A DNA stretch of 64,000 nt from positions 22,426 through 86,425 of the forward strand of contig CAZZHO010000001.1 of the NCBI GenBank assembly GCA_964653795.1, given 5' to 3'. Each line of letters starts with the position of its first letter. The stretch's first letter is position 1. The notes beneath the pieces are model-generated. The model was not told where the DNA came from, ran no database searches, and saw only the letters and a program-made list of their open reading frames with translations. Below, in pieces: positions 6,555 through 33,025 of this stretch. Both the position numbers and the translations under genes were made by a program. Source of the DNA: an uncultured Roseivirgaceae bacterium. Lineage in GTDB: Bacteria; Bacteroidota; Bacteroidia; Cytophagales; Cyclobacteriaceae.

Positions 6555-6565
6555 TAGCCAAAGTG

Positions 6566-7264: not shown

Positions 7265-7265
7265 C

Positions 7266-7505: not shown

Positions 7506-7511
7506 GGCCAG

Positions 7512-8012
7512 TTACTGCTCTAGCTCGATCTCGAAAGATCTGGCTAGTAACTCGGCAGTTTTTACCGCTTCTTCCTCTTTTTGATATGAAAAAGAGAAAT
7601 GAGGTATCCCGGCATCTAATGCGTAAGCGAAGACAGTATGGTCGGTAATGTCCCCTGAAAGCGTTGGGCTCACCCCATTGGGTGGATTGGTGACGTGAGA
7701 AGTTTTGGTGACCAGTTTGATCGCTGATATGGCAGGTAAATCATCCCACCTTCCAAATTTCACACCCATGAAGGAGGTATAATACTTGACCTGCTTTTGT
7801 GACAGGTCTATTTGCGTTCCTTCATAAGCTGTTGCCATCATCAACCCAAATGCAATGGCACCTCCGCCTACGACTAATATCCTGGTCATAGAGACGCTTA
7901 CTTCAAAAATTTGAGGAGAGAGCAATCCGAAAATGCCGGCCAATATGACTAAGAAGCCGATTAATCTATGCCCTTGAAAAACGCCGGTGTTCTTGTAGTT
8001 GAATAATGTCAT
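7512..8012 (-). CDS. Hypothetical membrane protein (two N-terminal TM helices plus a soluble domain)
   Basis: 166-aa ORF with a 4-nt ATGA overlap onto the upstream DUF418-like gene. No family recognised. Confidence 0.55.
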   Translation of the reverse strand: MTLFNYKNTGVFQGHRLIGFLVILAGIFGLLSPQIFEVSVSMTRILVVGGGAIAFGLMMATAYEGTQIDLSQKQVKYYTSFMGVKFGRWDDLPAISAIKLVTKTSHVTNPPNGVSPTLSGDITDHTVFAYALDAGIPHFSFSYQKEEEAVKTAELLARSFEIELEQ

Positions 8013-9085
8013 ATGCTGCTAAGCTTTTTCATCGTCCATTCCAGGGGACCTACTTCAAAACGCAATAACCAAACATGTGCGAATAGCGCACAAGCCAAGC
8101 TAAAAAATAAACTGTAAATCACAGTGAAACTAAGCGTATATTCTCCCAGAGGAATTGTGCTTACCATTTCTAGCAAGCCCATCCCGATGATGACATGGGC
8201 AACGTAGAATGTAAGTGCTAATTGGCCGGTCTTCTTCAGTAAGTTGATCACTATTGATTGACCGAAGTGGTGACCTAGCAGAATACATCCTGCAATCACT
8301 GCGAAGGCTGTAGCTGTTCCAACTAGCAGGTATAGTGGCAGAGGAGGCATAGGGCTGGTTTCAAAAAAGAGGGTCAGTTCAGCATATTCGGGACCGAGTG
8401 CGGTAATATAGATGGTGCAGACCTTGGCAAAAAAATGGACAAGTAAAACAAGGATTGAAGAGATGAATAGCGTCTTTTTTAAGAATCTCTGGCTCCTTAG
8501 GTCCTGACGTCCAAACCATAGGCCGAAAAGCATAAAAGCCACCCAGGGTATTACAGGATGAAACCCATTGATAAAAAGATTATGGAGGAATCCTTTGAGA
8601 GTCCAAAACCCGGAATAAGTCATGGCCTTGAAATCCCAGCCCGATTCATAATCTATGAATAGCATTAGGAAAGGGAAAAGCAAAATGATAGCTATGGCTC
8701 CAAAAAGGATAACCTGCTTCGACTGACGCAGAAACAGAATGGCTACGATCATATATACTCCATAGAAGTGCAAAATATCCGCTGGCCAGATTGGTATATA
8801 GGATAGACCAATCACAAAAAGGAAAAAAGCTCTTTTGAGAATCCCGTATCTGATATTAGATAACCTGGCGCTATCCTGATCTTGAATGGCCCGATTCGTA
8901 GATAGTGCTATGCCCACTCCGACCAATACGACAAAGGTGGCAGCTGCCTTGCCTTCCAGTAATCCTACTGCTTGTTGGAGCCAAGCTTGCCCATTGTCTC
9001 CCAAAACGATCTGGAAATTGACCAATATCATCCCAAAGACCGCCAAGGCCCTGGCTACGTCAATGCCGACTATTCTATTGGTCAT
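8009..9085 (-). CDS. DUF418/DUF1624-type (YeiB-like) polytopic membrane protein
   Basis: N-terminal RIVGIDVARALAVFGMILVNF signature followed by ~10 hydrophobic helices. The likely start is MTNRIVG at 9085 rather than the track start at 9115. Confidence 0.7.
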   Translation of the reverse strand: MTNRIVGIDVARALAVFGMILVNFQIVLGDNGQAWLQQAVGLLEGKAAATFVVLVGVGIALSTNRAIQDQDSARLSNIRYGILKRAFFLFVIGLSYIPIWPADILHFYGVYMIVAILFLRQSKQVILFGAIAIILLFPFLMLFIDYESGWDFKAMTYSGFWTLKGFLHNLFINGFHPVIPWVAFMLFGLWFGRQDLRSQRFLKKTLFISSILVLLVHFFAKVCTIYITALGPEYAELTLFFETSPMPPLPLYLLVGTATAFAVIAGCILLGHHFGQSIVINLLKKTGQLALTFYVAHVIIGMGLLEMVSTIPLGEYTLSFTVIYSLFFSLACALFAHVWLLRFEVGPLEWTMKKLSSI

Positions 9086-11013: not shown

Positions 11014-11589
11014 TCAAGAAAAACCTTTAGTCTTTTGCTTAAGACGGCTGAGGGTCTCCTGGGAGATCCCTAGCATAGAGGCAATGTATTTTGATGGAAC
11101 ATCCAGAAATAAGCTTGGATTTCTTTCGAACAAGAGCCTGAATCTTTCTTCAGCTTTCAGATTCATCAATTCGTAATTCCTGAACTCCAAAGCCTCGATG
11201 GCCTTAGATAACAACATATTTTCAAAGTCCAGCCAGCACCTATGACGTTCACACAAACGAAAATGGCTGTCTCTTTTGATGAGATGAATGGTGGCATCTG
11301 TAAGTGCTTCTATCTGCCACCTGCTAGGTTGCTGATGAACAAAGCTTGAGATGGCTGTGACGAATTTTCCTTTACCGGCGATTAGTAAGGTATTATCTTT
11401 TCCATTTTCTACTCGAAACATTCTCAGATAGCCCGATTCAATCAAAATCAGCTGCTTGGCTATCTCTCCAACTCTGGTAATGATGGATTTTCTTTTGAGA
11501 TCAGTACGATGAAAGCATGAGGAAATTTCTGCCAATTCGTGTTCTTCTGCCTTGACGTAATATGATATGGTTTCAGAAATAAAGCTCAT
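11014..11589 (-). CDS. Crp/Fnr-family transcriptional regulator (cNMP-binding domain plus HTH)
   Basis: 191 aa with a C-terminal HTH (YIASMLGISQETLSRLK). It overlaps the upstream kinase gene by 4 nt. Confidence 0.8.
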   Translation of the reverse strand: MSFISETISYYVKAEEHELAEISSCFHRTDLKRKSIITRVGEIAKQLILIESGYLRMFRVENGKDNTLLIAGKGKFVTAISSFVHQQPSRWQIEALTDATIHLIKRDSHFRLCERHRCWLDFENMLLSKAIEALEFRNYELMNLKAEERFRLLFERNPSLFLDVPSKYIASMLGISQETLSRLKQKTKGFS

Positions 11590-12911
11590 AGAGCGCCTTC
11601 CTCTGATTTTGGTAACACGATCCTAAAACAGCTTAGGTCCTCTGGCGTCCTTAAATATCTCAACTGACCCCCATGGGCTTTTATGATCTTACGAGACAAT
11701 GCAAGCCCAACACCAGATCCCGTTTCTTTGGTAGTGAAAAACGGTATAAAAATCTTATGAAGATTATCTGGTTTTACTCCGGGTCCATTATCCATGATGT
11801 CAATCACCACATCATGTTCATTTTCATAAACATCAATGGAAACGGACCCATCAGCCATGTTCGCTGTTGCTTCTTGTGCATTCAAAATCAAGTTGACTAA
11901 GACCTGCATTATTAACGCCTTATCGATCATTAAATGGTCTTTAAAGCGATCTTCAATATTGATGTCACTAGCAGATTGAAGCTCCTTCAAAGAAATGATT
12001 TGATCCAATAATTCCTTTGATGTCTCTGAAGAAATTCTGGGAGCGATAGGACGGTTGATTTTCCTGTAGGATTGCACAAATTCAAGCATTCCACCTGTTC
12101 TTTCTTCAATGGCCTTTAAGCTTTTTGCTACATTTTGCTGATCTCTCTTTTCTAGTGATTTGAGCTCGTTATTATCGATGAGCTTCTTATTCACTACTTG
12201 AACTAGCGAGAGGATGGGGGTGGAAGAGTTCATGATCTCGTGAGTGAGCACACTCAGTAACTTTTGATAATTCTCTAGCTCGTACCCTTCTAATGTGTTG
12301 GCCACATCGGTCAAGGATACTAGTAAGTATTCGCGTTCTTCCTCTATGAACCTTTCCTTCTTTACCAGTAATTTTTTATTTCCAGATTCGATGATCTCTT
12401 CGGAGCTAGTACTAGCTATCGATTGAGAAATCAGTGGCCATGTAGCCTTGATTTTAGCGAGATTCGGGCCTTTTTGAGTACCAAGAATTTTTAAGAATGG
12501 ACCATTGGCAAATACATTCTCTCCTTCATAATCAAAACAAGCTAACCCCAGAGGGATGTGTCCAATAAGCGTTTGAAGGAAAATTTGCTCCGATTGCTGC
12601 TCTTTTTTTATGGTTTCAAAAGCCTGGGTAATCTGATGATAAGCTTCTTTTAGTTCTTTGGAAGCGCTTGAGTTTTGATAGCTGCGGGCAAAGTCATGAA
12701 GCTTAACCGATTCAAGAAACCTGCTCCATTCTCTTTCTTGTTTCCTCAAAAACCAGTAGAGCTCGGCGATGGTAACGATCAGGAATAGACTGAATATGAA
12801 AGGCGTGACGATGAACTCCGTCCGCAGATAGCTGTAGCTAATTCCTAGTCCGAAAAACGCTAACAGTAGCACTCTTGCTATTACCTGAATGAAGCCTTTA
12901 CTAGAGACCAT
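11586..12911 (-). CDS. Sensor histidine kinase (NtrB/AtoS-like) with two closely spaced TM helices and no periplasmic domain
   Basis: H-box LTHEIMNSSTPIL, N-box LINLILNAQEA, G-boxes DNGPGV and GSGVGLALSRKII. The N-terminal helices are joined by about 4 residues (YL-RTEF-IV). Confidence 0.9.
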   Translation of the reverse strand: MVSSKGFIQVIARVLLLAFFGLGISYSYLRTEFIVTPFIFSLFLIVTIAELYWFLRKQEREWSRFLESVKLHDFARSYQNSSASKELKEAYHQITQAFETIKKEQQSEQIFLQTLIGHIPLGLACFDYEGENVFANGPFLKILGTQKGPNLAKIKATWPLISQSIASTSSEEIIESGNKKLLVKKERFIEEEREYLLVSLTDVANTLEGYELENYQKLLSVLTHEIMNSSTPILSLVQVVNKKLIDNNELKSLEKRDQQNVAKSLKAIEERTGGMLEFVQSYRKINRPIAPRISSETSKELLDQIISLKELQSASDINIEDRFKDHLMIDKALIMQVLVNLILNAQEATANMADGSVSIDVYENEHDVVIDIMDNGPGVKPDNLHKIFIPFFTTKETGSGVGLALSRKIIKAHGGQLRYLRTPEDLSCFRIVLPKSEEGAL

Positions 12912-14277
12912 ATTTCTTTAGTTTTCGGTAAAGCGTATTGCGACCGATGCCCAATTCTTGGGCAGCTCGCGAAATGTTGCCACTGTGTCTTGCCAGGATC
13001 TCTTGGATCTTTTGCTTTTCAACGGAATAAAGGTTGTCATCGGAAACGGACTCATTTGGGATGATTCCGCCTTCGGATTTACCCATGATCACCATTTTCT
13101 CGATTGTGTTTTTTAGTTCCCTTACATTCCCGGGCCAATGGTGCTTTTTGAAACCCTTAATATCTTCTTTGTCCAACTTCACTTTTTTATGATAGCGTCT
13201 GTTGAACTCCTCTAGAAATAGTAGCGCTAAGGGCTTAATGTCTTCTGGTCGGTATCGTAGAGGAGGAATTTCGATGGTGATGGTATTCACTCTGTACAAT
13301 AAATCCTGTCTGAATTTGGTCTCGTCTGCAAGCTCCTTTTCAGAAAAATGAGTGGTAGTAATTAATCTGATATCAACCGGTCTAGCACGATGCTCTCCGA
13401 TACGGGTGATCATTCGATTTTGAAGAGCACTGAGTAGTTTGCTCTGAAGGGGCAGAGGGAGCTCCCCTATTTCATCAAGAAGAAGAGAGCCGAAATTGGC
13501 CATTTCCATCATGCCTATCCTGTCTTGTTGGGCGTCGGTAAATGAACCCTTTTTGTGGCCAAATAGCGTGGATTCAAAAAGGCTTGGTGTAATGGCTCCC
13601 AGATCAGCATGGATTAGAGGCTGGGTAAATCTTGACGAACTCTGATGGATCAGTCTGGCCATTACTTCTTTACCCGAGCCATGTTCTCCGGTGATAAGAA
13701 TAGAAGCATCAGTTCCAGCGGCTTTTTCTATTGTTTTTTGTAGTGTGGCCATGCTTTGTGACCTGCCGAAGACTACTGGACCTAGTTTGTTGAGCTCACC
13801 TGATAATAAGGTGTTTTGAGTATTCGCATCATTCAAGGCAGATGTAGTTGATGACATTTTCAATGCACTTTTTACAGTTGCCACCATTTTCTCGTTAGAG
13901 AATGGCTTTTCCAGAAAGTCATCAGCTCCTTGTTTCAGCGAGGCAACCGCTATGTTTAGAAACCCGTGGGCTGTGAGTATAATGATAAAAAGGTGAGGGT
14001 ATTTCTCCTTGAGTTTTTTTATCCAGATCAGACCTTCTTTACCATCCTCATCACCTTTAGAAAAGTTGAGATCAAGAATCAAAACCTTGATGTCATGATG
14101 ATCAATTAAGTCCTCAATTCTGTTGGGGTCGGTTGTGGTTCCTACTTCACCAAAATCATCCTCGAGGACCATTTGGATGGTATGGAGTAATATCGGGTCA
14201 TCATCAGCTGCTAAAATTTCCACATAGGAAATATACTTATTTTGCTGTTCCACCTCGGAACAGTTGATTGTTCTCAT
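12901..14277 (-). CDS. Sigma-54-dependent response regulator (REC + AAA+ + Fis-type HTH, NtrC family)
   Basis: Walker A GEHGSGKE, sigma-54 contact loop GSFTDA, C-terminal HTH AAQELGIGRNTLYRKLKKYG. The true start may be GTG 14223 (see findings). Confidence 0.9.
   Translation of the reverse strand: MRTINCSEVEQQNKYISYVEILAADDDPILLHTIQMVLEDDFGEVGTTTDPNRIEDLIDHHDIKVLILDLNFSKGDEDGKEGLIWIKKLKEKYPHLFIIILTAHGFLNIAVASLKQGADDFLEKPFSNEKMVATVKSALKMSSTTSALNDANTQNTLLSGELNKLGPVVFGRSQSMATLQKTIEKAAGTDASILITGEHGSGKEVMARLIHQSSSRFTQPLIHADLGAITPSLFESTLFGHKKGSFTDAQQDRIGMMEMANFGSLLLDEIGELPLPLQSKLLSALQNRMITRIGEHRARPVDIRLITTTHFSEKELADETKFRQDLLYRVNTITIEIPPLRYRPEDIKPLALLFLEEFNRRYHKKVKLDKEDIKGFKKHHWPGNVRELKNTIEKMVIMGKSEGGIIPNESVSDDNLYSVEKQKIQEILARHSGNISRAAQELGIGRNTLYRKLKKYGL
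14245..14263. promoter_or_regulatory. Perfect dyad CTGTTCC-N5-GGAACAG, a candidate enhancer-binding-protein site
   Basis: 7-bp arms with a 5-nt spacer. It has the same TGTTyC-N5-GrAACA architecture as the dyads at 29079-29124 and lies 22 nt upstream of the alternative GTG start of the regulator. Confidence 0.4.
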
Positions 14278-14387
14278 TTGGTCAGAAATGACGTGTTTCA
14301 GTTTAATTTTTTGATTAAGTAGCTGATAGTCAGATATATGTAGTTTATGGAGCAGAAATGGACATATAGAGTGAAAATTGGAATGAC

Positions 14388-16811
14388 ATGTTGAAGACTT
14401 ACTTTATATCGATACTTCGGAATCTCTGGAAAAACAGAGTGACCTCAGCCATTAACGTTTTGGCTTTGACGCTTGGTCTCAGTAGCGTAATGTTTCTGTT
14501 TATCTCAGAGACTTACGAGCGCAGCTTTGATACTCACCACGCCAAGGCAGATCAGATTTATCGAGTAAATACGACGATGAAGTATCCGAACCAGCTTTTC
14601 AAAGATGGCAACACACCATCTATGCTCGTCAAGGCCATGAGAAATGAGTTTGAGGAGTTGGAGGCTACGTTTCAGACCGTAGGCCCTAACGATGCTTTGG
14701 TTACAATTGATCCGGGCTCACAAAAAGCCAGGACTTTCGAAGAGGATTTCAACATGTTCTACGCTGACAGTGTGTTCCTCAAATACATGGATTACGACTT
14801 TTTAGCAGGGAATCCTCGAAATGCGCTAGATACCAGGAATGCTATTGTACTCTCTACCAAGATGGTGGAGAAGTATTATCCTGATTTTGTAGGGCGTGAA
14901 ATTGAGTTGTTAGGTACGGAAATTGGGCTATTCGATTCGTTGAGGGTCTATGTAACTGGGGTTATTGACAATCCGCCTAGCAATAGCAACTTCCCTTTCC
15001 AGCTATTGGTCTCTAATGAGATCTACTATACCCTTAACGAGTGGGATCGAGACTATTGGGGGAATATATCAGCAGGTATGACTTTCGCTGTACTGCCAGC
15101 GGGGATGGATCCAAATCGTATAGAGGCACAGTTTCCCGATTTTGTACAGAAATATCGAAAAGGGGAAATGGCCAAAATTGTGAGTTATAGTCTCCTTAAC
15201 CTGAAGGAGCTTCATAACAATACCAATTGGGGGTTTTTCAATGGTAACTACACCAATTCTCCCGCTATGACCATTGGGTTTTTGGCGGTAGGTCTATTCA
15301 TTTTGATCTCAGCATGCATCAATTTCATAAATCTTCAGACCGCTCAGGCGGTAAACAGATCCAAAGAGGTAGGTATACGGAAAGTGATGGGAGGTAAGCG
15401 ATTCCAGCTTGTGTTTCAGTTTCTGGTAGAGACTTTCATTCTCACATTTGTCGCTTTCATTTTCGCGCTTTGGATTACTGAGTTGGCATTAGATGGCTGG
15501 AATGGTCTGTTGACTGTGGTAAGAATGGATTTACAGTTGACATGGTCCTCAGTGATCTTCGGATTGTTTGTGGTATTGCTGGTCACCATTCTCGCAGGTA
15601 TCTATCCTGCTCTAAAGCTTTCCTCTTTCAATCCATCAGAATCATTGAGAAGCGGTTTCTCACTGCTTAATGAGAAAAAAGGTAGTCTTAGTCTGAGACA
15701 AATATTAGTAGTTACTCAATTTGTCATTACCCAAATCCTGATTATAGGTACTATTGTCATATCCCAACAGATGAGTTATTTCATTAACAAAGACATGGGA
15801 TTCGATAAGGATGGAGTGATCACCGTCACTACTTACAAACCAAATAGGCAGAAAGTCGATCGATTAGTACAAGGTATCATGGCAATGCCAGAGATACAGT
15901 CTTTCTCCATGACATCCGGCCCTCCCATGGATGGTCGATATTCCACAAGTTTTAGGGAAGTAGGACATGAGGACAAAGGAGATATTCAAACAAGAAATAA
16001 GTTCGTAGACCATCGCTATCTAGATAACTATAAGATCAAGCTGGTAGCGGGAAGAAATTTCCGGTCGGATGAATATAATGACACAATCGATGCCTTTATT
16101 GTGAACGAAGCCTTGGTCAAACTACTAGAGGTAAGTAGTCCTGAGGAAGCAATTGGCAAGCAGATAAGGTGTTACGGTACCAGAGCTAATATTGTGGGAG
16201 TGATGCAAGACTATCATAGTGATAAGCTTGACAAGCCGATAGAGCCGATGGTATTGTTTCCTTGGCACAATCAGGTAAATGGTGCGGATCTGAGACTTTA
16301 CCCAAATCAACTGGGGTCAGTACTTCCAAAGCTGAGATCTCTTTGGGCCGAAGTATTTCCGACACGTATTTTCGAATTCCAAACCATCGATGAATTTATG
16401 CTCAAGGCTTATCTGGTTGAGGAGGTAATGTTGAAGAGCATCAGGGTCTTCTCCATCATCGCCATATTGATTGGATGTCTGGGACTCTATGGGCTAGTTT
16501 CATTTATGGCCAACAGGAGGATCAAAGAAATCGGCGTTAGAAAGGTATTAGGAGCTTCTTTTGGTCAAATACTTTACAGTTTCTCTAAGAAGTTTTACAT
16601 ACTGACATTCATTGCTTTTGTGATAAGTGCGCCTGTTGCCTATAAAGCGATGGAGGTATGGTTAAGCAACTATGTGTATAGGATTCCTCTGGATTGGAAA
16701 GTATTCTCATTGGCACTCTTAATGACCTTGGTGCTAACAAGTATTACGGTCATCTACAAAGCGATTAAAACAGCCTTGATGAACCCCGCGGATACGCTGC
16801 AGTTCGAGTAG
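14388..16811 (+). CDS. MacB/FtsX-family ABC-type permease (fused double module, ~800 aa)
   Basis: N-terminal MLKTYFISILRNLWKNR...TM signature, two large extracytoplasmic domains and two FtsX 3-TM modules (...EVGIRKVMGG... and ...EIGVRKVLGAS...). Confidence 0.9.
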   Translation: MLKTYFISILRNLWKNRVTSAINVLALTLGLSSVMFLFISETYERSFDTHHAKADQIYRVNTTMKYPNQLFKDGNTPSMLVKAMRNEFEELEATFQTVGPNDALVTIDPGSQKARTFEEDFNMFYADSVFLKYMDYDFLAGNPRNALDTRNAIVLSTKMVEKYYPDFVGREIELLGTEIGLFDSLRVYVTGVIDNPPSNSNFPFQLLVSNEIYYTLNEWDRDYWGNISAGMTFAVLPAGMDPNRIEAQFPDFVQKYRKGEMAKIVSYSLLNLKELHNNTNWGFFNGNYTNSPAMTIGFLAVGLFILISACINFINLQTAQAVNRSKEVGIRKVMGGKRFQLVFQFLVETFILTFVAFIFALWITELALDGWNGLLTVVRMDLQLTWSSVIFGLFVVLLVTILAGIYPALKLSSFNPSESLRSGFSLLNEKKGSLSLRQILVVTQFVITQILIIGTIVISQQMSYFINKDMGFDKDGVITVTTYKPNRQKVDRLVQGIMAMPEIQSFSMTSGPPMDGRYSTSFREVGHEDKGDIQTRNKFVDHRYLDNYKIKLVAGRNFRSDEYNDTIDAFIVNEALVKLLEVSSPEEAIGKQIRCYGTRANIVGVMQDYHSDKLDKPIEPMVLFPWHNQVNGADLRLYPNQLGSVLPKLRSLWAEVFPTRIFEFQTIDEFMLKAYLVEEVMLKSIRVFSIIAILIGCLGLYGLVSFMANRRIKEIGVRKVLGASFGQILYSFSKKFYILTFIAFVISAPVAYKAMEVWLSNYVYRIPLDWKVFSLALLMTLVLTSITVIYKAIKTALMNPADTLQFE

Positions 16812-24080: not shown

Positions 24081-26552
24081 CTATTCATACTTGAGAGAGT
24101 CTACTGGATTCAAGGAAATAGATCTTAGAATTCTACTCACTATAGTCAAGGCTGCCACGAAGCAAACGAATGCTAAAGGGACAACCAACAGCCACCATCC
24201 CAGATCAATGCTAAAATGATAGTTCTCTAGCCAGCTACTGAGCGCAAACCAACAAATTGGCATAGCAATCAAGTAGGCTATAGAGATAATGCTAGCATAG
24301 TTTCTTGAGAGTAAGAGTGTAAGTCCAAGGGATTTTGCTCCTAGTACTTTCCGTATGCCTATTTCCTTGATTCGTTGCTGAAGAGTGAAGGTGGTCAAAC
24401 CATAAAGTCCCAAACACGCTATTACTATCGCAAGCACTGAGAAAGTACCGAAGATTTTACCAAACTGCTCATCGGCAGCATACTGCTGGTTAAAGTTGTC
24501 ATCCAGAAAGAAGTAGTCCATAGGAGTATCCGTAAAACTGTTACTCCATTCGTTTTCAATCAAACTCATCGTTTGACTAAGAGCTTTGGCTCTTTGAGCT
24601 GGCTCTTCCTGTGTGAGATTCATCTTGACGAAATAAAATTCCGTCCAGCTACTCTGTATGTACATAATTGGATCATAATCACTATGTAATGAAACTTGGT
24701 GATGGTTTTTAGCTACCCCTACTATCATGGTTGGGTTTCGACTATAGAAGCCTTCCAATTTTTTCCCTAGTGCATCCTCGGGGTTTTCGAAACCTAATAG
24801 TCTGGCTAGTTTTTCATTGATCACAACTGCTCCATTTCCCCAGGCACTGTCTTGAGGACCTAATTTTCTGCCTGCTACGATCTCGATCTCAAAGAAGTCC
24901 ATGAATCCTCTTCCGACAGTCATGAAGCTGGTTCCTATGGATTCGTCAGAATTTTTACCGGGTAGTTTCACCTCTCCACCCCATGTAATGGGTTCTCCGG
25001 GGATTTCTCCCGCATTGGTAATGGAAACAATCTCTGACCTTCCGTCCAGGGCTGTCTTGAAGCTGTTGAATTTCTTAACATCGGGCCGATCTTGCTGACT
25101 CACGTCGCCCGGAGGTGATTTTATCACCAAAATATCACTGATATCCAACCCAAGGTCACTTGCCTTCATAAAAGAGATCTGCTTGTAGATAGTGATGGTC
25201 ACACCTATCAATAGGAAAGTGATGATAAATTGGAATGAGACTAAAATGCTCCTTAGACTAAAACCAGATAGCTTCTGAGTCTTTTTATTGCCTGTGAGAA
25301 TGTTAGCCGTATCGAATCCTTTTAAAATGATGGCTGGATATGAGCCTATGAGGAACGCTCCCAAAATCACCACCATGAAAGCCATGATGAGGATATCGGT
25401 GCTTTGAAGAATACCAAAGTTGATACCCGTTAGCTGAAGGATAAGAGGGGATGAAAGTTGGACAATTGTGATGGCCAGAAGGAAAGCAAATGAATTTAGA
25501 AGAACCGCCTCGAGTAGGAACAGTAAGGTTATTTGCTGGGTTTTTGAACCCATGACCTTACGAATCCCAACTTCTTTCAATCGATCAAGGATTTTGACCA
25601 ATGATAGATTTAAATAGTTGATCCAGGCAACAATCAGTATAATGATCGCAATGGTAGAAAGTGCATAGATCATTCTATAATCTACAGAAGGCTTAAAGTC
25701 GGTGCTGGCTGTTGAGTATAGATGTAAATCTTTCAATCCCATCAGCGAATAATCAATGATATAGCCATATTGATCGAGCTTCTCTCTAGCACTTTCTTTA
25801 TGTATCCGATAGATGTCTTTTTCGATTTCAGCGACAGTTGCTTGAGGCTCTAAGAGGAGATAGGTATAGAAGGCAAAATTTCCCCAGTTGTCAAGCTTAA
25901 TACCATATTCATTTTCAATGCTTTGAGTTGATAATAAGGAGCTAAACTGAAAATGAGACTGTTTCGGTAGGTCCTCGATGACTCCAATTATTTCGAAGCT
26001 TCTCTCACCATTGTTGGAGGCTATGTTCATAGGCTTTCCAATTAGCTTTTTGAAATCGTTGGTATACTTCTTTGCTATCGACTCTGTAAGAATCAAAGTC
26101 CTGTTTTGGTCGAACTTTTCTGCATTACCGGCAATGAATTCAACTTCGAACATATCGAAGAAGGCTTTATCCGTACTGTATGTTCCTCTTTCTTGAAAGG
26201 AGAGCAAGTTTCCTGCATCCTCCAGACTAAATGTATTGTTTAGATAATCGAGGTTATAGAATCTTGTGACCGATGCTACCAAAGGGTTTGATTCCGAAAT
26301 CATTCGTCCCATCTGAGGAGAGCATCTTGCTGATTCGCCCTCACTCAGGCCAGACTTGGTGGCCATTGTCTGAATTCGGTAGATATTGTCGCTATTCCTC
26401 CAATTTTTATCAAACTCAGCATGGTATTGGACGTATTGAGCGATTGTAATGCAGGCAGCAATCCCTAGCGCTAGGCCCAATATGTTGATGACTGAATAAA
26501 GCCGGTTCTTCTTAATCTGTCTAAGTATCGTGATAAAGTAATTGCGAAGCAT
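24081..26552 (-). CDS. MacB/FtsX-family ABC-type permease (fused double module)
   Basis: MLRNYFITILRQIKKNR N-terminus, and two FtsX modules with EVGIRKVMGS and EIGIRKVLGA loops. 823 aa. Confidence 0.9.
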   Translation of the reverse strand: MLRNYFITILRQIKKNRLYSVINILGLALGIAACITIAQYVQYHAEFDKNWRNSDNIYRIQTMATKSGLSEGESARCSPQMGRMISESNPLVASVTRFYNLDYLNNTFSLEDAGNLLSFQERGTYSTDKAFFDMFEVEFIAGNAEKFDQNRTLILTESIAKKYTNDFKKLIGKPMNIASNNGERSFEIIGVIEDLPKQSHFQFSSLLSTQSIENEYGIKLDNWGNFAFYTYLLLEPQATVAEIEKDIYRIHKESAREKLDQYGYIIDYSLMGLKDLHLYSTASTDFKPSVDYRMIYALSTIAIIILIVAWINYLNLSLVKILDRLKEVGIRKVMGSKTQQITLLFLLEAVLLNSFAFLLAITIVQLSSPLILQLTGINFGILQSTDILIMAFMVVILGAFLIGSYPAIILKGFDTANILTGNKKTQKLSGFSLRSILVSFQFIITFLLIGVTITIYKQISFMKASDLGLDISDILVIKSPPGDVSQQDRPDVKKFNSFKTALDGRSEIVSITNAGEIPGEPITWGGEVKLPGKNSDESIGTSFMTVGRGFMDFFEIEIVAGRKLGPQDSAWGNGAVVINEKLARLLGFENPEDALGKKLEGFYSRNPTMIVGVAKNHHQVSLHSDYDPIMYIQSSWTEFYFVKMNLTQEEPAQRAKALSQTMSLIENEWSNSFTDTPMDYFFLDDNFNQQYAADEQFGKIFGTFSVLAIVIACLGLYGLTTFTLQQRIKEIGIRKVLGAKSLGLTLLLSRNYASIISIAYLIAMPICWFALSSWLENYHFSIDLGWWLLVVPLAFVCFVAALTIVSRILRSISLNPVDSLKYE

Positions 26553-26582
26553 GGTGAGGTTTTTTAAAAGGTCTTGATTTGA

Positions 26583-28982
26583 TTATTGATATCTCAAAGA
26601 GTCAATAGGGTTGGCTTTCGCGATGCTCAAGCTCTTTCTACCCACTGTGGTGATCGTGATGAAGACGGTGATGCCAAATGATATCAGGAAGTACATGGCG
26701 CTGATGCTAATTTGATATTCAAATCCATTCAACCATTCTCTGCATAGTAAATAGGAGCAAGGCGCGGCTATGATGAATGCCAGCGTCATGAGAATAGCAA
26801 TATCAGAGGAAAAGGCTCGTAAAATGTTGGAGATAGATGCTCCAAATACTTTTCTGATGCTGATGCTTTTTCTATTGCGAGCTGCCATGAAAGAAACTAA
26901 ACCATACAACCCGAACACACCAATCAAGATTGCGAGTACCACGAAGAATTGGAAGACGGTATAAATCAGATTTTCAACGATGTAGCTCTGAACTAACATG
27001 TCATTGATAAACCTTGCTTCAAAGTAAGCTTTAGGTGCAAATTCTCTGAAGATTCTTTCTATTTCAGGGAGGACTGTCTGTAAGTCGTGTGTATTTAGCT
27101 GAATGTTAATTTGATGCATATTACCGGGCATGTGGGAGAGCATAACGGGTACTATTTTATTCTGCAATGATTCTGCGTGATAGTCTTCGACTACCCCAAT
27201 GATCTTACCTTTCCAGGATCCGAAGTACTTCACTTCTAATCCAAGTGCATCTTCAATTGCAATATTTGCTCTTTTGAGGAATTCCCGATTTACCAGCAGT
27301 TGCATCGTACTATCTGAAGTGAATTTGTTTTCAACATTTCTGCCTGACAAAAGGGGTACACCGTAGAGGTCCAAATAAGCTTCATCAATGAATTTGACGT
27401 TCATGTGCATGTCTTCAGTTGTTTCCTGACCTTCTATGCTATAACCACTACCCCAGTAGACGTTGGCCTGTGGCGCCGCCATACACCAGGAGGCTTTCTC
27501 CACAAAGTTCAATGCTCTATACTCATTGAGGATGGTCGGCATTTTATCGGAGACTTTCTTTGGAAATTCAATGCTTAAGATATTCTCACGATTGAATCCA
27601 AGGTCCTTATTCTTCACATAGTGCATCTGAGCTGCCACTATTACTGTGGTGATGATGAGAAGATTAGCAATCACAAACTGAAATACCACCAATCCCTTAC
27701 GGATAAAGGATTTGCCAGCGCCTTGATTTAGAGTGACCTGATTTTTTAAAGCGGTAATAGGATTGTATCCTGATATAATCATTGCGGGGTAAAAACCAGC
27801 AAGCAGGCTTACTACGATTCCTAGTAGAAGTGAGAAGAGAATAACTGTTAAATCATATGAAACGTCGAATCTCACGATAGCCAAAAGTTCATTGAGTTTC
27901 AACATGAGGAATTGACCAAGAGTAAACGCTATCAATGTGGCTATAGAAACGATGATGGCGGTCTCACCGATGAACTGAGCTATGAGGCTGCCTTTTCCAC
28001 TGCCCAATGTCTTTTTAATTCCTACTTCTTTGGACCGCTGCACGGCTAAAGCAGTAGAAAGGTTAATGAAGTTGAGAATAGAGGCAGTTAGGGTAATGAC
28101 CGCCAATAGCACGAAACCAATTAATACCTCTTTCGGGGAAACATAGGTGGTAGTTTGCTCATATCTGGAATCTGTGTGTACCTCAGACAGAGGTTGAAGG
28201 AAGTACTCAGTTCTTTCTTTCTCATATTCTGAGACGTGTTGATGCGCTATGTGGGTTATTTTCTCCTCAACTTCCGAAGTACTCTCACTATCTTCTTTGA
28301 CGAAATATGCAGAAGCCGTCCAGTAAGCTTCCCAACTTTTCACATAGTCATTATAAAGACTCGGCATTGTCTTATGAGAGATGATCATGTCAAAAGGTGT
28401 ATTGGTATAAGAGGGCGGGTTTTCTATTACACCCGCTACTTCTAAATCCACATACTCACCTACAGTGACGATTCTACCTACCGGATTGGCGCTACCAAAA
28501 TAGGTTTCGGCCTTTTTCTCAGTAAGAAAGATTTTGAAAGGTTCATCCAGAGCTTCGGAGCCAGCGCCTCTTAATATGTTAAAATCAAGGTGTTTTATGA
28601 AGCTGCTATTGGTGAAGAGAATGGCGTCTTCTTTGAATACCAGGTGTCTCGCTTCAAAATCGAATTCAATAGTCGAGCTCTGAGGACCGTTCATAGGGAT
28701 AATTTGGCTACCATAGTTGGCCGTATGTGCAAGTGCTTCTCCCATAGCGTTAGGAATGATACCTCGGTAGTTTACCCCATAATCTCCCAGGCTATGCTCA
28801 ACGATTCTGTAGACACTTTCCTTTTTCTGATGGAAACTGTCAAACCGCAGTTCATATCTCATGATGGAATAGACTACCAGACAGCATGTAATGCCGATAC
28901 TGAGGCCCAGGATGTTGACCAAAGTATAAAACTGGTTCTTACGGAAGTTTCTTAACGCTGTAGTAAAGTAGTGCTTTAACAT
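26583..28982 (-). CDS. MacB/FtsX-family ABC-type permease (fused double module)
   Basis: The family N-terminus MLKHYFTTALRNFRKNQ begins at 28982; the track start at 29006 adds 8 residues and would overlap the -24/-12-like element. It has two FtsX modules. Confidence 0.9.
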   Translation of the reverse strand: MLKHYFTTALRNFRKNQFYTLVNILGLSIGITCCLVVYSIMRYELRFDSFHQKKESVYRIVEHSLGDYGVNYRGIIPNAMGEALAHTANYGSQIIPMNGPQSSTIEFDFEARHLVFKEDAILFTNSSFIKHLDFNILRGAGSEALDEPFKIFLTEKKAETYFGSANPVGRIVTVGEYVDLEVAGVIENPPSYTNTPFDMIISHKTMPSLYNDYVKSWEAYWTASAYFVKEDSESTSEVEEKITHIAHQHVSEYEKERTEYFLQPLSEVHTDSRYEQTTTYVSPKEVLIGFVLLAVITLTASILNFINLSTALAVQRSKEVGIKKTLGSGKGSLIAQFIGETAIIVSIATLIAFTLGQFLMLKLNELLAIVRFDVSYDLTVILFSLLLGIVVSLLAGFYPAMIISGYNPITALKNQVTLNQGAGKSFIRKGLVVFQFVIANLLIITTVIVAAQMHYVKNKDLGFNRENILSIEFPKKVSDKMPTILNEYRALNFVEKASWCMAAPQANVYWGSGYSIEGQETTEDMHMNVKFIDEAYLDLYGVPLLSGRNVENKFTSDSTMQLLVNREFLKRANIAIEDALGLEVKYFGSWKGKIIGVVEDYHAESLQNKIVPVMLSHMPGNMHQINIQLNTHDLQTVLPEIERIFREFAPKAYFEARFINDMLVQSYIVENLIYTVFQFFVVLAILIGVFGLYGLVSFMAARNRKSISIRKVFGASISNILRAFSSDIAILMTLAFIIAAPCSYLLCREWLNGFEYQISISAMYFLISFGITVFITITTVGRKSLSIAKANPIDSLRYQ

Positions 28983-29012
28983 CTCTTCAAAAGTTATTCT
29001 GACCACTACATA

Positions 29013-29027
29013 TGCAAAAAGGTGCCA
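29013..29027 (-). promoter_or_regulatory. Sigma-54 (-24/-12)-like element TGGCACCTTTTTGCA, with non-canonical GG-N9-GC spacing
   Basis: The minus strand reads TGGCAC C TTTT TGCA, ~30 nt upstream of the permease start at 28982. The spacing is 1 nt shorter than the consensus TGGCAC-N5-TTGC. Confidence 0.35.
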
Positions 29028-29078
29028 TAATTATAAAATATTGATAATCAGTATTTTAATATGTTTTGGGCTAGTAAA

Positions 29079-29124
29079 AAGTGTTTCTTTATGAAACACT
29101 TAATTGTTTTCAAATGAAACAATT
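29079..29124. promoter_or_regulatory. Two abutting 23-bp dyads (AAGTGTTTC-TTTAT-GAAACACTT and AATTGTTTT-CAAAT-GAAACAATT), a candidate UAS/operator
   Basis: The first dyad has perfect 9-bp arms and the second matches 8/9. They lie ~50-110 bp upstream of the -24/-12-like element and 30 nt upstream of the regulator ATG. Confidence 0.5.
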
Positions 29125-29154
29125 GGTTAATTCATGCTACAAAATGGGCATTAA

Positions 29155-30519
29155 ATGAGAAAAAGTGGACACATATTGATAGTCGATGATGATCAGGACG
29201 TCCTTTTCACGGCGAAAACCATCTTGAAAAGGGAGTATCTAAAAGTATCAGTTGAGAGTAGTCCAAATCGGCTTGAGACTTTGCTTAAGAAAGAAGAGCT
29301 GGATATTGTGATATTGGATATGAACTTCAAAGCGGGTGTTACAAGTGGTAATGAAGGTCTATTCTGGCTCAAGAGGATTAAAGAAATAGATCCTTCGGTG
29401 CATGTCATTCTCAATACCGCCTACGGGGATATTAACCTGGCGGTACAGTCAATGAAAGATGGAGCTACCGACTTCCTTGTAAAGCCATGGGAAAAGGAGA
29501 AGCTATTGACCACAGTGGCTAATGTCTTTGAGCTTCGCCAATCTGGAAAGAAAATCAAGAAGCTTGAAGCTACAGAAACGGCTCTGACCGAGGATATTGA
29601 TTCCGGCTATTCAGAGCTTGTTTTTCAATCCGCCAGGATGGGTAAAGTAATGGATACAATTAAAAAGGTGGCACAAACCGACGCTTCTGTGCTCATTCTA
29701 GGAGAGAACGGAACCGGTAAAGAGGTGGTGGCCCGAACGATCCATCGCCTTTCAGGAAGAAATAAGAATGCCATGATAAAAGTGGACTTGGGTGCTTTGG
29801 CTGAATCTTTATTTGAATCAGAACTGTTCGGTCATAAGAAAGGGGCTTTCACAGATGCCAAAGAAGATAGGACGGGCCGTTTCGAGATAGCCGATGGTGG
29901 GACCATTTTTCTGGATGAGATAGGTAATTTGAGTTTAGCGATGCAAGTGAAGCTGCTTTCAGTTTTGCAAAACCGTCAGTTTACTCCCGTTGGCTCTAGC
30001 AAAGCAATTGATTTTGACACTCGGGTAATTAGTGCTACCAATCAGTCATTGTACGATATGGTTTCAGACGGAGATTTCCGGCAGGATTTACTGTATAGAA
30101 TAAATGTTGTGGAAATAGAATTACCTCCACTGAGGGAGAGGAGGGAGGATATACCTCTTCTAGCAAATCACTATCTGGCCACCTACGCTCAGAAGTATCA
30201 GCGTCCAGGATTAAAAATTGAAGATAGATGTCTTTCTCAGCTTGGTAGTTATCCATGGCCAGGCAATATTCGAGAGTTACAACATGCAGTGGAAAGGGCG
30301 GTAATAATGGCTCCAGGTCGAGTACTGAAGTCAGATGACTTTTTATTGCCAAAGACCACCCGGGTCGTATCTCAAAATTCTTTAAATATGGAAGATGTGG
30401 AAAAAGAAGCTATTTTGAAGGCGATTGAAAAATATGAAGGTAATTTGAGTAAAGCGTCAGAAGAACTAGGTATGGGGCGAACGACGCTTTATCGAAAAAT
30501 TAAAAAATACGGATTGTAG
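29155..30519 (+). CDS. Sigma-54-dependent response regulator (REC + AAA+ + Fis-type HTH, NtrC family)
   Basis: REC domain (ILIVDDDQDVLF...D at ILDMNF), Walker A GENGTGKE, loop GAFTDA, HTH ASEELGMGRTTLYRKIKKYG. Confidence 0.92.
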   Translation: MRKSGHILIVDDDQDVLFTAKTILKREYLKVSVESSPNRLETLLKKEELDIVILDMNFKAGVTSGNEGLFWLKRIKEIDPSVHVILNTAYGDINLAVQSMKDGATDFLVKPWEKEKLLTTVANVFELRQSGKKIKKLEATETALTEDIDSGYSELVFQSARMGKVMDTIKKVAQTDASVLILGENGTGKEVVARTIHRLSGRNKNAMIKVDLGALAESLFESELFGHKKGAFTDAKEDRTGRFEIADGGTIFLDEIGNLSLAMQVKLLSVLQNRQFTPVGSSKAIDFDTRVISATNQSLYDMVSDGDFRQDLLYRINVVEIELPPLRERREDIPLLANHYLATYAQKYQRPGLKIEDRCLSQLGSYPWPGNIRELQHAVERAVIMAPGRVLKSDDFLLPKTTRVVSQNSLNMEDVEKEAILKAIEKYEGNLSKASEELGMGRTTLYRKIKKYGL

Positions 30520-31887
30520 TTGGAGACTTATTTGAAGTTCAGGTGGCAGGTATTAGGTCGAACATTTCTAATAATTGGTTTCGCCTTTGGTGCTTTTTAT
30601 TTCTGGAACTATACACCATTTTCATTGATGGTGTTTTGGATGATATTGTTTTCGATACTTTCCCTCGTGGAACTTATTCGGTTTGTTGAGAGGTCCAATA
30701 GAGACCTACGAAACTTTCTAATTGGTATAAAACAGAATGACTTTTCGACTATCTACCCTCAAAAGGAAAGCCAGAAGAATCACCTGTATCATGCTTTCAA
30801 TCTCATTACAAGAGAGTTTATTAAGCTCAGAAGCGAGAAAGAGAGTAACTACCACTTTTTCAAGACGGTAGTAGAGCACAGTCGGGTACCACTCATTGCT
30901 TACACTCTTGAAGAACAGCAGGTTACATTGGTGAATGAGGCCGCCAAGGAGCTTTTTGGAATTCCATACATATCAAAGCTTTCCTCCTTGAAAAATGTTG
31001 ACGAACAGCTTTACAACTCGGTGGTTGATTTGCAAAGCGAAAAGAAAATCTTGTTGAAGGTCCAGGTAAAAAATGATCCCATTACACTTTCTATCGTCTC
31101 GAAAGTGTTGGTCTTACAAGAAAACACCTATAAAGTATTGGCATTTTATAACCTCAATTCTGAGTTGGATCAACAGGAGGTAGAGTCTTGGCAGAAACTC
31201 ATTAGGGTGCTGACACATGAGATTAAAAATAGTGTCATCCCAATTTCTACTTTATCGGAAGTAGTCAATCAGATGATTACAGAGCAAGATGGTTCTGAAA
31301 AAGCTATTGAAGAGCTTGATGAGGAGGATCAAGATGATTTACGAATTAGTTTGAGGACAATCGAAAAGAGGAGCAAGGGATTGGTCAAGTTTGTAAATTC
31401 ATATGGGGATCTTGCCAGAACTCCAAAACTAGAGCTTGAAGAAGTTGACGTAATAAAACTTGTGCAACAGGTTTTGGACCTTGAGTCGGAGGAGCTGAGA
31501 AAGAGAGATATTAGATTAGAAACCTCATTTCCTAATCGTCCAGTTTCGACGATGGTGGATACATCAGCTATCGATCAAATCTTAATCAATATTTCCAAAA
31601 ATGCGATTGAGGCCATGGAGGGAGGTGGCGATTCTCTATTGAATGTATCAGTGTTAGAAGCTGAAGGGTTCGCAAAAATTTCTATTGAGGACAATGGGCC
31701 TGGTATTGATGATGAAACTCTCAGCAATATCTTTATTCCTTTCTACACTACTAAGGAAGGAGGCTCTGGTATAGGTCTGCCGCTTTCTAAGCAGCTGATA
31801 AGGGCGCATGGAGGAAACATTCAAGTAAAATCCACTGTGGGTAGTGGTACTAGGTTTGAAATTTCCATACCCATCAGGAATAAATAA
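30520..31887 (+). CDS. Sensor histidine kinase (NtrB/AtoS-like) with two closely spaced TM helices and no periplasmic domain
   Basis: TTG start immediately after the regulator stop. H-box LTHEIKNSVIPIS, N-box LINISKNAIEA, G-boxes DNGPGI and GSGIGLPLSKQLI. The TM helices are joined by NYTP. Confidence 0.9.
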   Translation: METYLKFRWQVLGRTFLIIGFAFGAFYFWNYTPFSLMVFWMILFSILSLVELIRFVERSNRDLRNFLIGIKQNDFSTIYPQKESQKNHLYHAFNLITREFIKLRSEKESNYHFFKTVVEHSRVPLIAYTLEEQQVTLVNEAAKELFGIPYISKLSSLKNVDEQLYNSVVDLQSEKKILLKVQVKNDPITLSIVSKVLVLQENTYKVLAFYNLNSELDQQEVESWQKLIRVLTHEIKNSVIPISTLSEVVNQMITEQDGSEKAIEELDEEDQDDLRISLRTIEKRSKGLVKFVNSYGDLARTPKLELEEVDVIKLVQQVLDLESEELRKRDIRLETSFPNRPVSTMVDTSAIDQILINISKNAIEAMEGGGDSLLNVSVLEAEGFAKISIEDNGPGIDDETLSNIFIPFYTTKEGGSGIGLPLSKQLIRAHGGNIQVKSTVGSGTRFEISIPIRNK

Positions 31888-31918: not shown

Positions 31919-33025
31919 ATGAGCTTTAGTTTATTAGATCTTTTTCTGGCAATGGGCATCGGTCAGGGTTTGGTCCTAGTATTGGCCATAGCAAGGTTTG
32001 GTAGTGGAAATAAGGGCGCCAATAAGCTTTTGCAGGTTATCATCGTCATGTCAATGTTAATGCTGGTTGGACGAATCCTGGCTTTCGGTAAGTTATCTGA
32101 GTTGTCCCTTCGTTTAGGCACATTTGTAGATATCACAATCTTTCTGTTCGGACCTGTATCCTTACTTTTTGCCAAGTCCTACACTGATAGAAAAGCGAAA
32201 ATATCCATCCTTCATTGGGTGCCAGCCTCCATTCACTTTGTGTTCTTTATTTGGACTTGTTTTCTATCATATGAATCATATGCTCAATACCTCCGTGCAG
32301 GGTTTTTCATCTGGGCATTCTTCATAATGGAGACTTTGGGTTTAATCTCGATGATAGTCTACACATTGGCCTCACTGAGACTTGTAAGAATCACTTTCCA
32401 AAGAGTTGGCTTTGTCCAAAGTCCACAAAAGCCATTTTTATATGCTCTTTTCGGTAGCCTTTTGGCAATTGAAGTATTTTGGGTATTTGGTTATCTGGAG
32501 TCCAACTTCTTTCAAGTAGGATTCAACATTTTGGCTTATCAGAATATTTGGACGTTCATTCCAATCTTCTTCAGTGCCATTACCATCTTTGGTCTATTTA
32601 ATCCAAAAGTGCTAAAGAGAATAGGTAGTATACCAACAATATCGGAGAGGGTAAGAGACGAAAAGAAAGTCGCTATTATGAAGAACCTGCTGAAGGTGAT
32701 GGAAGAGGGGGTTTACCTTAATGCAGATCTCAGTTTGCCTGGATTGGCCGCAGAAATAGGTGTGTCAGCCAATGACTTGTCCTGGTTTTTAAATGCTGAA
32801 TATGGTCGAGGTTTTTACGAGTTCATAAATGAGAGGAGGTTGAAGGCCTTTGAAGAAAAAATTAGAAATCGTGAACATAAGGAAAGGACACTGCTGGCCT
32901 TAGCGTATGAGGTAGGTTTTAATTCGAAAACTACTTTCAATAAGGTATTCAAGGAGATGAGAAAAGAGACACCTAGTAGTCTGGTCAAAAAAATCGAAAA
33001 AGAGAGGGAGAAAATGGTGGCCTAA
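31919..33025 (+). CDS. Membrane-embedded AraC-family transcriptional regulator (polytopic N-terminus plus C-terminal HTH)
   Basis: About 7 hydrophobic helices over residues 1-230, then an AraC HTH (LPGLAAEIGVSANDLSWFLN ... LALAYEVGFNSKTTFNKVFK). Confidence 0.8.
   Translation: MSFSLLDLFLAMGIGQGLVLVLAIARFGSGNKGANKLLQVIIVMSMLMLVGRILAFGKLSELSLRLGTFVDITIFLFGPVSLLFAKSYTDRKAKISILHWVPASIHFVFFIWTCFLSYESYAQYLRAGFFIWAFFIMETLGLISMIVYTLASLRLVRITFQRVGFVQSPQKPFLYALFGSLLAIEVFWVFGYLESNFFQVGFNILAYQNIWTFIPIFFSAITIFGLFNPKVLKRIGSIPTISERVRDEKKVAIMKNLLKVMEEGVYLNADLSLPGLAAEIGVSANDLSWFLNAEYGRGFYEFINERRLKAFEEKIRNREHKERTLLALAYEVGFNSKTTFNKVFKEMRKETPSSLVKKIEKEREKMVA

Follow-up and report, generated by a model that had tools for sequence, protein, structure and literature searches.

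The DNA considered here is a 64,000-nucleotide stretch of contig CAZZHO010000001.1 from an uncultured Roseivirgaceae bacterium, referred to below as the window, and its subject is a locus of four genes at 24081-31887 that encode two exporter-type permeases, a response regulator and a histidine kinase. Judged from its sequence and from related loci, this locus is rather probably a two-component module that acts through sigma-54 to turn on the expression of MacB-type permeases, i.e., permeases of the type VII ATP-binding cassette (ABC) exporters. The module is present in at least two paralogous copies in the source genome and represents a widespread, uncharacterised kind of pump-linked two-component regulation.

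The four genes had been described in a first-pass annotation made from the letters alone, and the list of open reading frames (ORFs), the Pfam matches and the hydropathy profiles agree with it in both position and architecture. The gene permB (26583-28982, minus strand, about 799 aa) comes first in the permease operon and permA (24081-26552, minus strand, 823 aa) is the distal gene. In each protein Pfam recognises two stretches of MacB_PCD and two of FtsX (for permA at 8e-29 and 6e-21, respectively), and hydropathy gives the first transmembrane (TM) helix, a large loop and TM helices 2-4, the whole pattern occurring twice, which makes eight predicted TM helices. This bears out the earlier description of permeases of about 800 aa with a duplicated module of TM helix, large domain and FtsX unit, and each permease resembles two MacB-type membrane units joined in one chain, with two periplasmic domains. 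Sequence relatives of permA in the PDB are MacB, Spr0695 and 3is6, and its orthologs are found in the related loci L082, L084 and L085. The coordinates place permB and permA 30 bp apart, as noted earlier, and no terminator-like site lies between them. The upstream permease ORF can be read either from a GTG (26583-29006) or from an ATG (26583-28982); the second is preferred as the likely start (ATG 28982), because the longer GTG frame would traverse the promoter described below. The context of this start codon, ATGTTAAAGCAC, is common to L081. The regulator gene, EBP1 (29155-30519, plus strand, 454 aa), is divergent from the permeases, and its Pfam matches (Response_reg, Sigma54_activat with E=4e-67, AAA_lid_14 and HTH_8) confirm the REC/AAA+/Fis-type helix-turn-helix (HTH) architecture of an NtrC-type response regulator, with D55 in the REC domain. 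The kinase gene, HK1 (30520-31887, plus strand, 455 aa), encodes an HATPase_c domain and the full set of H, N, G1, F and G2 boxes, the H-box histidine being H233. The closest solved catalytic cores are those of ZraS and ThkA.

The triad of permease, activator and kinase is conserved in related genomes, as the reading in the first-pass annotation required, both in the orthologs of this locus and of its paralog and in a scan across phyla. The orthologs have kinases 82% (L081), 62% (L082), 57% (L084), 58% (L085) and 53% (L086) identical to HK1, and they keep the order of permease(s), activator and kinase without an ATPase gene. A kinase-anchored scan with one genome per species gave a family sample of 80 loci from Bacteroidota, Latescibacterota, Zixibacteria, Ignavibacteria, Acidobacteriota, Cloacimonadota and other phyla, and the activator lies immediately upstream of the kinase in 76 of the 80. 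Neighbouring pump genes were counted only where 5 kb or more of upstream sequence was available, which applied to 53 loci. MacB-type pump genes are adjacent and divergent in 32 of these 53, as adaptor, ATPase and permease(s) in 13 loci, permease(s) only in 9, adaptor, ATPase and channel without a permease in 4, adaptor and ATPase in 3, and ATPase and permease in 3; at a further 6/53 loci the pump genes are located further off. The arrangement recurs in orthologous loci and across phyla and is far beyond chance.

The 172-bp intergenic region between permB and EBP1 contains a putative sigma-54 promoter of the permB-permA operon together with two palindromes. The promoter element, TGGCACCTTTTTGCAT (29012-29027, minus strand), has a perfect -24 hexamer TGGCAC at 29027-29022 followed by a GC in the spacing GG-N9-GC. 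The pattern TGGCAC-N3-6-TTGC has two matches in the 64 kb, one of which is the permB promoter, where 0.4 would be expected. The TGGCAC hexamer is kept in the orthologs and stands at the same position in L081, L082 and L086; at the corresponding promoter L084 carries the fully canonical TGGCATTATCCGTGCC, and L086 has TTGAA at the right -12 spacing. The first palindrome (29082-29098) is a perfect 17-bp TGTTTC-N5-GAAACA, with its centre about 65 bp upstream of the -24 GG. The second, TGTTTTCAAATGAAACA (29105-29121), has one mismatch; its distance from the -24 GG, on the upstream side, is about 88 bp, and the EBP1 ATG follows it after 34 bp. The first is the sole match without mismatch in the window, the two together are the sole matches with zero or one mismatch, and both are conserved in L081-L086. 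These palindromes are likely sites of the activator, for which they stand as candidates by position and conservation, and the output of EBP1 is very probably a sigma-54 promoter. An E. coli-type sigma-70 match, TTAAAA-18-TATAAT, lies beside the TGGCAC; it was given no weight, because Bacteroidota housekeeping promoters differ from the E. coli type and such matches are fewer than in shuffled sequences. Elsewhere in the window, the sole canonical -24/-12 string, TGGCACTGAATTGC (50931-50944, plus strand), lies inside an ORF with an MlaD domain (50446-51369) and is probably a chance match.

The loop by which the activator would contact sigma-54 reads GAFTDA in EBP1 and GSFTDA in EBP2, the activator of the second triad, in place of the canonical GAFTGA. 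Among the activators of the family GAFTDA occurs 44 times, GSFTDA 11 times and GAFTGA twice, while the search pattern matched no loop in 12 others. The GAFTDA loop is thus the family norm, and it is also found at loci with perfect canonical promoters. This variant is among those tolerated for sigma-54 activation in Desulfovibrio vulgaris (PMC4641369), although elsewhere its effect has been called unknown (PMC10714721).

A second triad of kinase, activator and permease, absent from the first-pass annotation, is located at 11586-16811 of the window. It comprises HK2 (11586-12911, minus strand), a paralog of HK1 with 32% identity and the same TM hairpin, EBP2 (12901-14277, minus strand), an NtrC-type activator 43% identical to EBP1, and permC (14388-16811, plus strand, 807 aa), a duplicated MacB_PCD/FtsX permease with 25-31% identity to the permeases of the first triad. 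In its orthologs L087, L088, L089 and L092 (43-52% identity), a single permease is likewise divergent from the activator-kinase pair. The candidate binding site of EBP2 is a 17-bp palindrome, TGTTCCACCTCGGAACA (14246-14262), whose counterparts are TGTTCCACCCCGGAACA in L087 and L088, TGTTCTAGGTTGGAACA in L089 and TGTTCCAGGGCGGAACA in L092; the variant is paralog-specific, with TGTTCC-N5-GGAACA here versus TGTTTC-N5-GAAACA in the first triad. The palindrome falls inside the first 11 codons of the longest EBP2 ORF and the EBP2 orthologs are 425-439 aa long, which makes the GTG at 14223 the better and probably the true start. The putative sigma-54 promoter of permC, TGGAGCAGAAATGGAC (14348-14363, plus strand, GG-N10-GA), lies 25 bp before the permC ATG. 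Its footprint is TGGTAGCATTTTGGAC in L087 and L088, and in L089 and L092 it takes the canonical GG-N10-GC form, as TGGCAGATTTTTGGCC and TGGCAGCCTTTTGGCC.

Several observations weigh against reading the locus as a sigma-54 switch for pump permeases. The local -12 GC is one base too close to the -24 element, and for this reason a search for the canonical TGG-N9-TGC gives no match in the permB-EBP1 intergenic region. The -12 GC is also not kept in the closest orthologs, where TACAT (L081) and TTAAC (L082) are found, and the promoter of the second triad has GA in place of the -12 GC. The sigma-54 gene rpoN was not seen among the annotated ORFs of the 64-kb window, which is part of the genome. No ABC ATPase ORF was detected in the window either. 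At 15/53 loci of the family there are no pump genes nearby, so that what the activator-kinase pair controls can also be different or located far away. The HAMP-like segment by which a signal could leave the membrane in HK1 is inferred from the topology of a structural model and from its Foldseek matches (WalK, VicK). In favour of such a switch, the sigma-54-type motif TGGYAY-N5-[TGA][TG]G occurs within the family on the pump strand in 21/32 pump-adjacent versus 0/15 pump-less loci (Fisher p=1.4e-5), and within the 32 pump-adjacent loci on the pump strand in 21 versus the activator strand in 2 (p=9e-7); since the motif was defined after inspection of the data, it is these comparisons of groups and strands that carry weight and not the raw count. 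Perfect canonical sigma-54 promoters are present, for example, in L068 and L078. The earlier proposal of a -24/-12 output therefore stands as regards the conserved -24 TGGCAC, the palindromes and the association of the motif with the family, and it falls short at the local -12 element with its non-canonical GG-N9-GC.

The same evidence bears on the explanation that the adjacency is non-regulatory, with a housekeeping sigma factor driving the permeases and the activator-kinase pair controlling other genes, such as an AraC-type gene or distant targets. The non-canonical -12 element and the 15 loci without nearby pump genes speak in its favour, as does an AraC-type (HTH_18) gene of 368 aa that begins 31 bp after HK1 (31919-33025) and is kept in L081 and L082. 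However, the triad is conserved in both paralog groups, the sigma-54-type motif is strand-specific and tied to pump-adjacent loci, and the palindromes and TGGCAC are conserved together in the shared intergenic region, which leaves this explanation very improbable. The AraC-type gene may share an operon or a circuit with HK1, and AraC-type genes also occur near the second-triad orthologs L087 and L088.

The signal to which such a module would respond has to be considered from the structure of HK1. An AlphaFold model, built on an alignment of 40 relatives and with a mean predicted local distance difference test (pLDDT) score of 82, contains a membrane hairpin made of a helix (residues 2-31), a three-residue turn (32-34) and a second helix (35-71), followed by a loop (72-87), a further helix (88-120), a five-stranded PAS fold (125-211, pLDDT 85-90), the DHp domain (212-299) and the CA domain. 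The absence of a periplasmic domain, proposed earlier, is upheld by the two helices in the hydropathy profile, by the modelled turn and by the aligned relatives, in 0/40 of which an insertion was found at this point. The description of HK1 as a kinase without a sensor domain holds for the periplasmic side only, because a HAMP-like helix-loop-helix and a PAS domain exist on the cytoplasmic side. The alternative offered in the same annotation, a cytoplasmic PAS domain, is structurally correct: Pfam PAS_8 passes its cut-off narrowly in HK1 (E=9e-5), Pfam finds PAS in 9/13 relatives, and the top Foldseek matches of the model are WalK, VicK and LOV-kinase chimeras. The stretch between TM2 and the H-box amounts to about 180 aa and not to the 150 aa first estimated, and the PAS domain as a whole takes up roughly residues 113-211 of it. 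Pfam recognised HAMP (E<=1) in 0/13 members of the family. The N-terminal module of HK1 (residues 1-215) is represented by 458 clusters at 50% identity (E<=1e-10), nearly all of them proteins of about 450 aa with the same layout as HK1.

The distribution of conserved residues within this architecture is uneven. In the 40 relatives, which are 31-61% identical to HK1, conservation reaches 90% or more at T32, F34, L36, W40 and L43 of the turn and TM2, and conservation is also seen in the juxtamembrane connector QNDFSxxYP. The PAS domain is among the least conserved parts, with 11/99 positions at or above 90%, most of them general PAS scaffold residues, and conservation across the 40 relatives revealed no cofactor motif in it. 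Sensing by the PAS domain itself, of a small molecule or metabolic cue in the cytoplasm or at the inner leaflet and with the hairpin as a mere anchor, finds support in the modelled fold, in the Pfam and Foldseek matches, and in the similar cytoplasmic layout of the AtoS, NtrY and ZraS-type relatives. Nevertheless, the few invariant positions and the lack of a visible cofactor motif argue against it, and the turn, TM2 and QNDFSxxYP are relatively more conserved than the PAS domain, which is unexpected for a passive anchor. This possibility is regarded as rather doubtful. Because the turn, TM2 and the connector are conserved, the PAS domain has few invariants and a HAMP-like unit appears to follow TM2, a signal that is read within the membrane, whether or not the permease takes part, is favoured over a ligand bound by the PAS domain solely on the cytoplasmic side.

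Sensing in the membrane plane may take two forms. In one, the hairpin would itself detect a perturbation of the bilayer or a lipophilic compound in the manner of LiaS or DesK, with neither a permease nor a PAS ligand being needed. The three-residue turn and the conserved residues of the turn and TM2 fit this form, which would also explain the presence of such kinases at loci without a permease, but the occurrence of several paralogous modules in one genome argues for distinct, specific signals and not for a generic membrane cue; it can be held as a tentative possibility. In the other form, comparable to Bce flux sensing, HK1 would be unable to sense by itself; its hairpin would be complexed with PermB/PermA and their ATPase and would read the transport cycle, so that the permease is the actual sensor and induces its own synthesis. 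There is a precedent in BceS-BceAB (PMC9169098). An outer turn of only three residues, a conservation of T32, F34, L36, W40 and L43 that exceeds the expectation for a simple anchor, and a HAMP-like segment directly after TM2, which fits a signal passing through membrane helices, are all in keeping with it. Moreover, each paralogous kinase adjoins its own strongly diverged permeases (25-31% identity), and specificity could reside in the periplasmic domains. A comparison of kinase and permease paralogs over the 80 loci was uninformative as to their co-segregation, since all scan loci are nearer to HK1 than to HK2. On the other hand, HK1 carries a PAS domain that BceS does not, a kinase of the same architecture stands beside adaptor, ATPase and channel genes without a permease, and 15/53 loci lack a pump gene nearby. 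The adjacency of kinase and permease is thus not obligatory, as the pair at the permease-less locus L090 demonstrates. Flux sensing is therefore rather unlikely, and much the same can be said, roughly, of the permease as an obligatory co-sensor.

If the module is a switch for pump permeases, the other parts of the pump have to be sought outside the window. The first-pass annotation called the permeases orphans, and this is accurate only locally, as the window contains no ATPase; in relatives an ATPase gene either shares the operon or occupies a paralogous locus of its own. There is likewise no ATPase within +/-10 kb of eight orthologous loci, and neither an adaptor (HlyD/MacA) nor an outer-membrane factor was found beside either triad or in the Pfam-scanned window, a scan that covered all but a few ORFs beyond 51 kb. 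At 16/53 loci, however, the same permease family is in an operon with a 229-aa ABC ATPase. One related genome, circular and of 6.39 Mb, has three paralogous activator-kinase loci: at L090 (2829-11350) two adaptor genes are accompanied by genes for an ABC ATPase and an outer-membrane factor, and a permease gene is missing; L091 (1-11335) has at least four duplicated permease genes in tandem, L092 (5915-11296) has a single permease gene, and neither L091 nor L092 includes an ATPase gene. This suggests that a pump is assembled there from separately regulated parts. The N-terminal amphipathic helix of permB, MLKHYFTTALRNFRKN, is conserved as in ATPase-linked homologs, and the helix preceding TM1 is equally conserved in the permeases of ATPase-linked and ATPase-less loci; we take it, by homology, to be the counterpart of the coupling helix of LolC/E and MacB. 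Taken together, the division of labour among L090-L092 and the equal conservation of this helix indicate that the window permeases are probably parts of a split pump, with ATPase, adaptor and channel encoded elsewhere in the genome and probably separately regulated.

The opposite possibility is that the permeases act without an ATPase, as passive or otherwise energised proteins or as purely signalling or mechanical ones. The lack of an ATPase in the window and around the eight orthologous loci would be expected in this case, and the ADOP family (acidobacterial duplicated orphan permeases, NCBIfam TIGR03434), which resembles these permeases and whose name implies as much, is defined by the lack of adjacent ATPases. 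However, the 16 operons with a 229-aa ATPase, the helix equally conserved in both types of loci, and the L090 ATPase locus, which lacks a permease and is placed under a paralogous activator-kinase pair, all point the other way, and homologous DarB-type permeases work with an ATPase. ATPase-free permeases are accordingly considered improbable.

The functioning of the module may be envisaged as follows. HK1, anchored by its tight TM hairpin with the conserved T32, F34 and W40, would sense, at the level of the bilayer, a signal which could be a lipophilic or amphipathic compound, a perturbation of the membrane or the working state of the partner permease. The signal would pass from the hairpin through the HAMP-like segment and the PAS domain to the DHp/CA core, leading to autophosphorylation on H233 and transfer of the phosphate to D55 of EBP1. 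Phosphorylated EBP1 would assemble on the two palindromes at 29082-29121, and its GAFTDA loop would remodel the sigma-54 holoenzyme at TGGCAC (29027-29022), with permB-permA transcription starting near 29000. Each duplicated permease would mimic the transmembrane dimer of MacB while keeping the N-terminal coupling-type helix, and the permeases would dock to an ATPase, an adaptor and an outer-membrane channel whose genes lie outside the window. As in the related genome, these genes would probably belong to a third locus with a paralogous activator-kinase pair. The assembled pump may then expel its substrate from the periplasm or the outer leaflet.

A more far-reaching version is a combinatorial exporter, in which a shared chassis of adaptor, ATPase and channel would be combined with alternative permeases, each permease set and the chassis being under its own kinase-activator pair and each kinase reading the working state of its cognate permease. 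This version is speculative and must be considered unlikely. Should it be true, flux sensing would be coupled to an all-or-none output that depends on an enhancer, Gram-negative bacteria would possess a sigma-54 counterpart of the Bce modules, and the large family of ADOP-like permeases would acquire a function. The split arrangement itself suggests that type VII ABC pumps may be assembled from separately regulated parts, and intramembrane or transporter-coupled sensing may extend beyond Firmicutes and OmpR-type outputs.

The genes around both triads have ordinary chromosomal housekeeping functions according to the Pfam scan of the window. A gene for a 191-aa protein with a cyclic-nucleotide-binding domain (11014-11589) overlaps the HK2 stop by 4 bp, and it is therefore probably co-transcribed with EBP2 and HK2. 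A protein of about 800 aa with MG2 and TonB-Plug domains is encoded two genes from the permease in L087 (596-2995) and L088 (672-3053), and a similar MG2/TonB-Plug protein is found in the window at 1362-3848, about 8 kb from the second triad. In L083, whose kinase is 56% identical to HK1 and which is otherwise syntenic, a gene for a 1623-aa protein (3423-8294) takes the place of both permeases. It has no Pfam match, and the region upstream of it retains the palindromes together with two TGGCAT elements. Its length matches the sum of permA and permB, but a fusion of the two was rejected, as it has no similarity to the permeases.

Among known systems, the first-pass annotation had likened the locus to a Bce cassette rewired to sigma-54. 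BceB has 10 TM helices and one large extracellular domain, BceR is an OmpR-type regulator acting at a sigma-70-type promoter, BceS lacks a PAS domain, and BceA is encoded adjacently (PMC9169098). The likeness to BceRS-BceAB consists in a two-component system beside an FtsX-fold permease that it presumably induces and in the two TM helices without an extracellular domain that HK1 shares with BceS, the latter being the sole point on which the locus agrees with a Bce module. In contrast, each window permease has 8 predicted TM helices and two domains in the periplasm, neither window triad includes an ATPase gene, HK1 has a PAS domain, the activator is of the NtrC type and would act at a sigma-54-type promoter, and the module is a Gram-negative one, with adaptor and outer-membrane partners in its relatives. 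With an 8-TM duplicated MacB-type permease, a non-OmpR regulator and a PAS kinase, the proposal of a rewired Bce cassette had to be abandoned; the locus is not a Bce module, and any resemblance is functional only, a plausible analogy at most.

The regulatory pair resembles ZraSR, AtoSC and NtrYX in its REC-AAA+-HTH regulator and in a kinase core closest to ZraS and AtoS, and its homologs are automatically annotated as NtrY. It differs from them in its target genes and in NCBIfam equivalog scores far below the cut-offs; the best NCBIfam matches of EBP1 are PrsR, AtoC, NtrC and ZraR, every score being below the cut-off, and membership in PrsK/PrsR, AtoSC, ZraSR or NtrBC was rejected because none of the scores comes near its curated cut-off. 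A periplasmic sensor domain is found in ZraS, and NtrY contains additional TM segments. A survey based on position-specific scoring matrices (PSSMs) published in 2025 found that predicted sigma-54 promoters are enriched in front of COG0577 FtsX permeases in Bacteroidia, which its authors presented as the first such evidence, the cognate kinase-activator pair not being described (PMC12316311). With this survey as the exception, the literature on sigma-54 together with MacB, FtsX, Bacteroidetes or intramembrane-sensing kinases yielded no characterised system, and a sigma-54 survey of 2011 does not mention MacB/FtsX-type transporters. The earlier view that the combination is uncharacterised thus applies to the kinase-activator pair, on which no paper was found, but not to the link between sigma-54 and FtsX permeases, which had already been predicted (PMC12316311).

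As for the permeases, they share with ADOP (TIGR03434) a length of about 800 aa, two FtsX/MacB units, many paralogs per genome and usually no adjacent ATPase. They align with the model over its full length at 256, 250 and 299 bits versus a cut-off of 622, and are thus relatives and not members of that family. Their partner here is an activator-kinase pair, whereas ADOP genes are typically paired with PadR-type regulators. A PadR gene stands directly 5' of a duplicated FtsX permease of 867-890 aa in L088 (12666-15592) and L092 (18294-21292), and such PadR-permease pairs show that this permease family has another regulatory pairing besides the sigma-54 triads, which the genomes concerned also contain. 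ADOP permeases occur in many copies in Dyadobacter and in a highly translated cluster in Psychroflexus, with function unknown (PMC11573002, PMC3914696), and ADOP-like permeases reach tens of copies in many Bacteroidota and Acidobacteria, their function and regulation having been unknown since their description in 2009 (PMC3914696, PMC11573002). A dedicated sigma-54 switch beside permeases of this kind offers an experimental handle, as a reporter of the promoter could lead to the inducers and hence to the substrates. The likeness to DarB of the DarBCD system lies in a duplicated FtsX-type permease of about 777 aa with homology over most of the length, but the NCBIfam scores of the window permeases (95-121 bits) are far under the equivalog cut-off of 700. 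DarB is encoded with an ATPase and an adaptor inside a peptide biosynthetic cluster, and the Pfam scan of the window finds no such cluster around the triads.

The comparison extends finally to MacAB-TolC. The FtsX unit of four TM helices with the MacB periplasmic core between TM1 and TM2 is shared with it, twice per window permease, and the operons of relatives encode an HlyD-type adaptor, an ABC ATPase and an OEP/TolC-type channel. The differences are that the window permease is an internal duplication, i.e., a fused pseudo-dimer, that the ATPase is a separate polypeptide and that ATPase, adaptor and channel are absent from the window locus and its close orthologs, and that here a dedicated sigma-54 two-component system would exert the control. 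Summarizing, the wider family to which the locus belongs is a Gram-negative, MacAB-TolC-like tripartite pump composed of adaptor, ATPase and often an outer-membrane factor.

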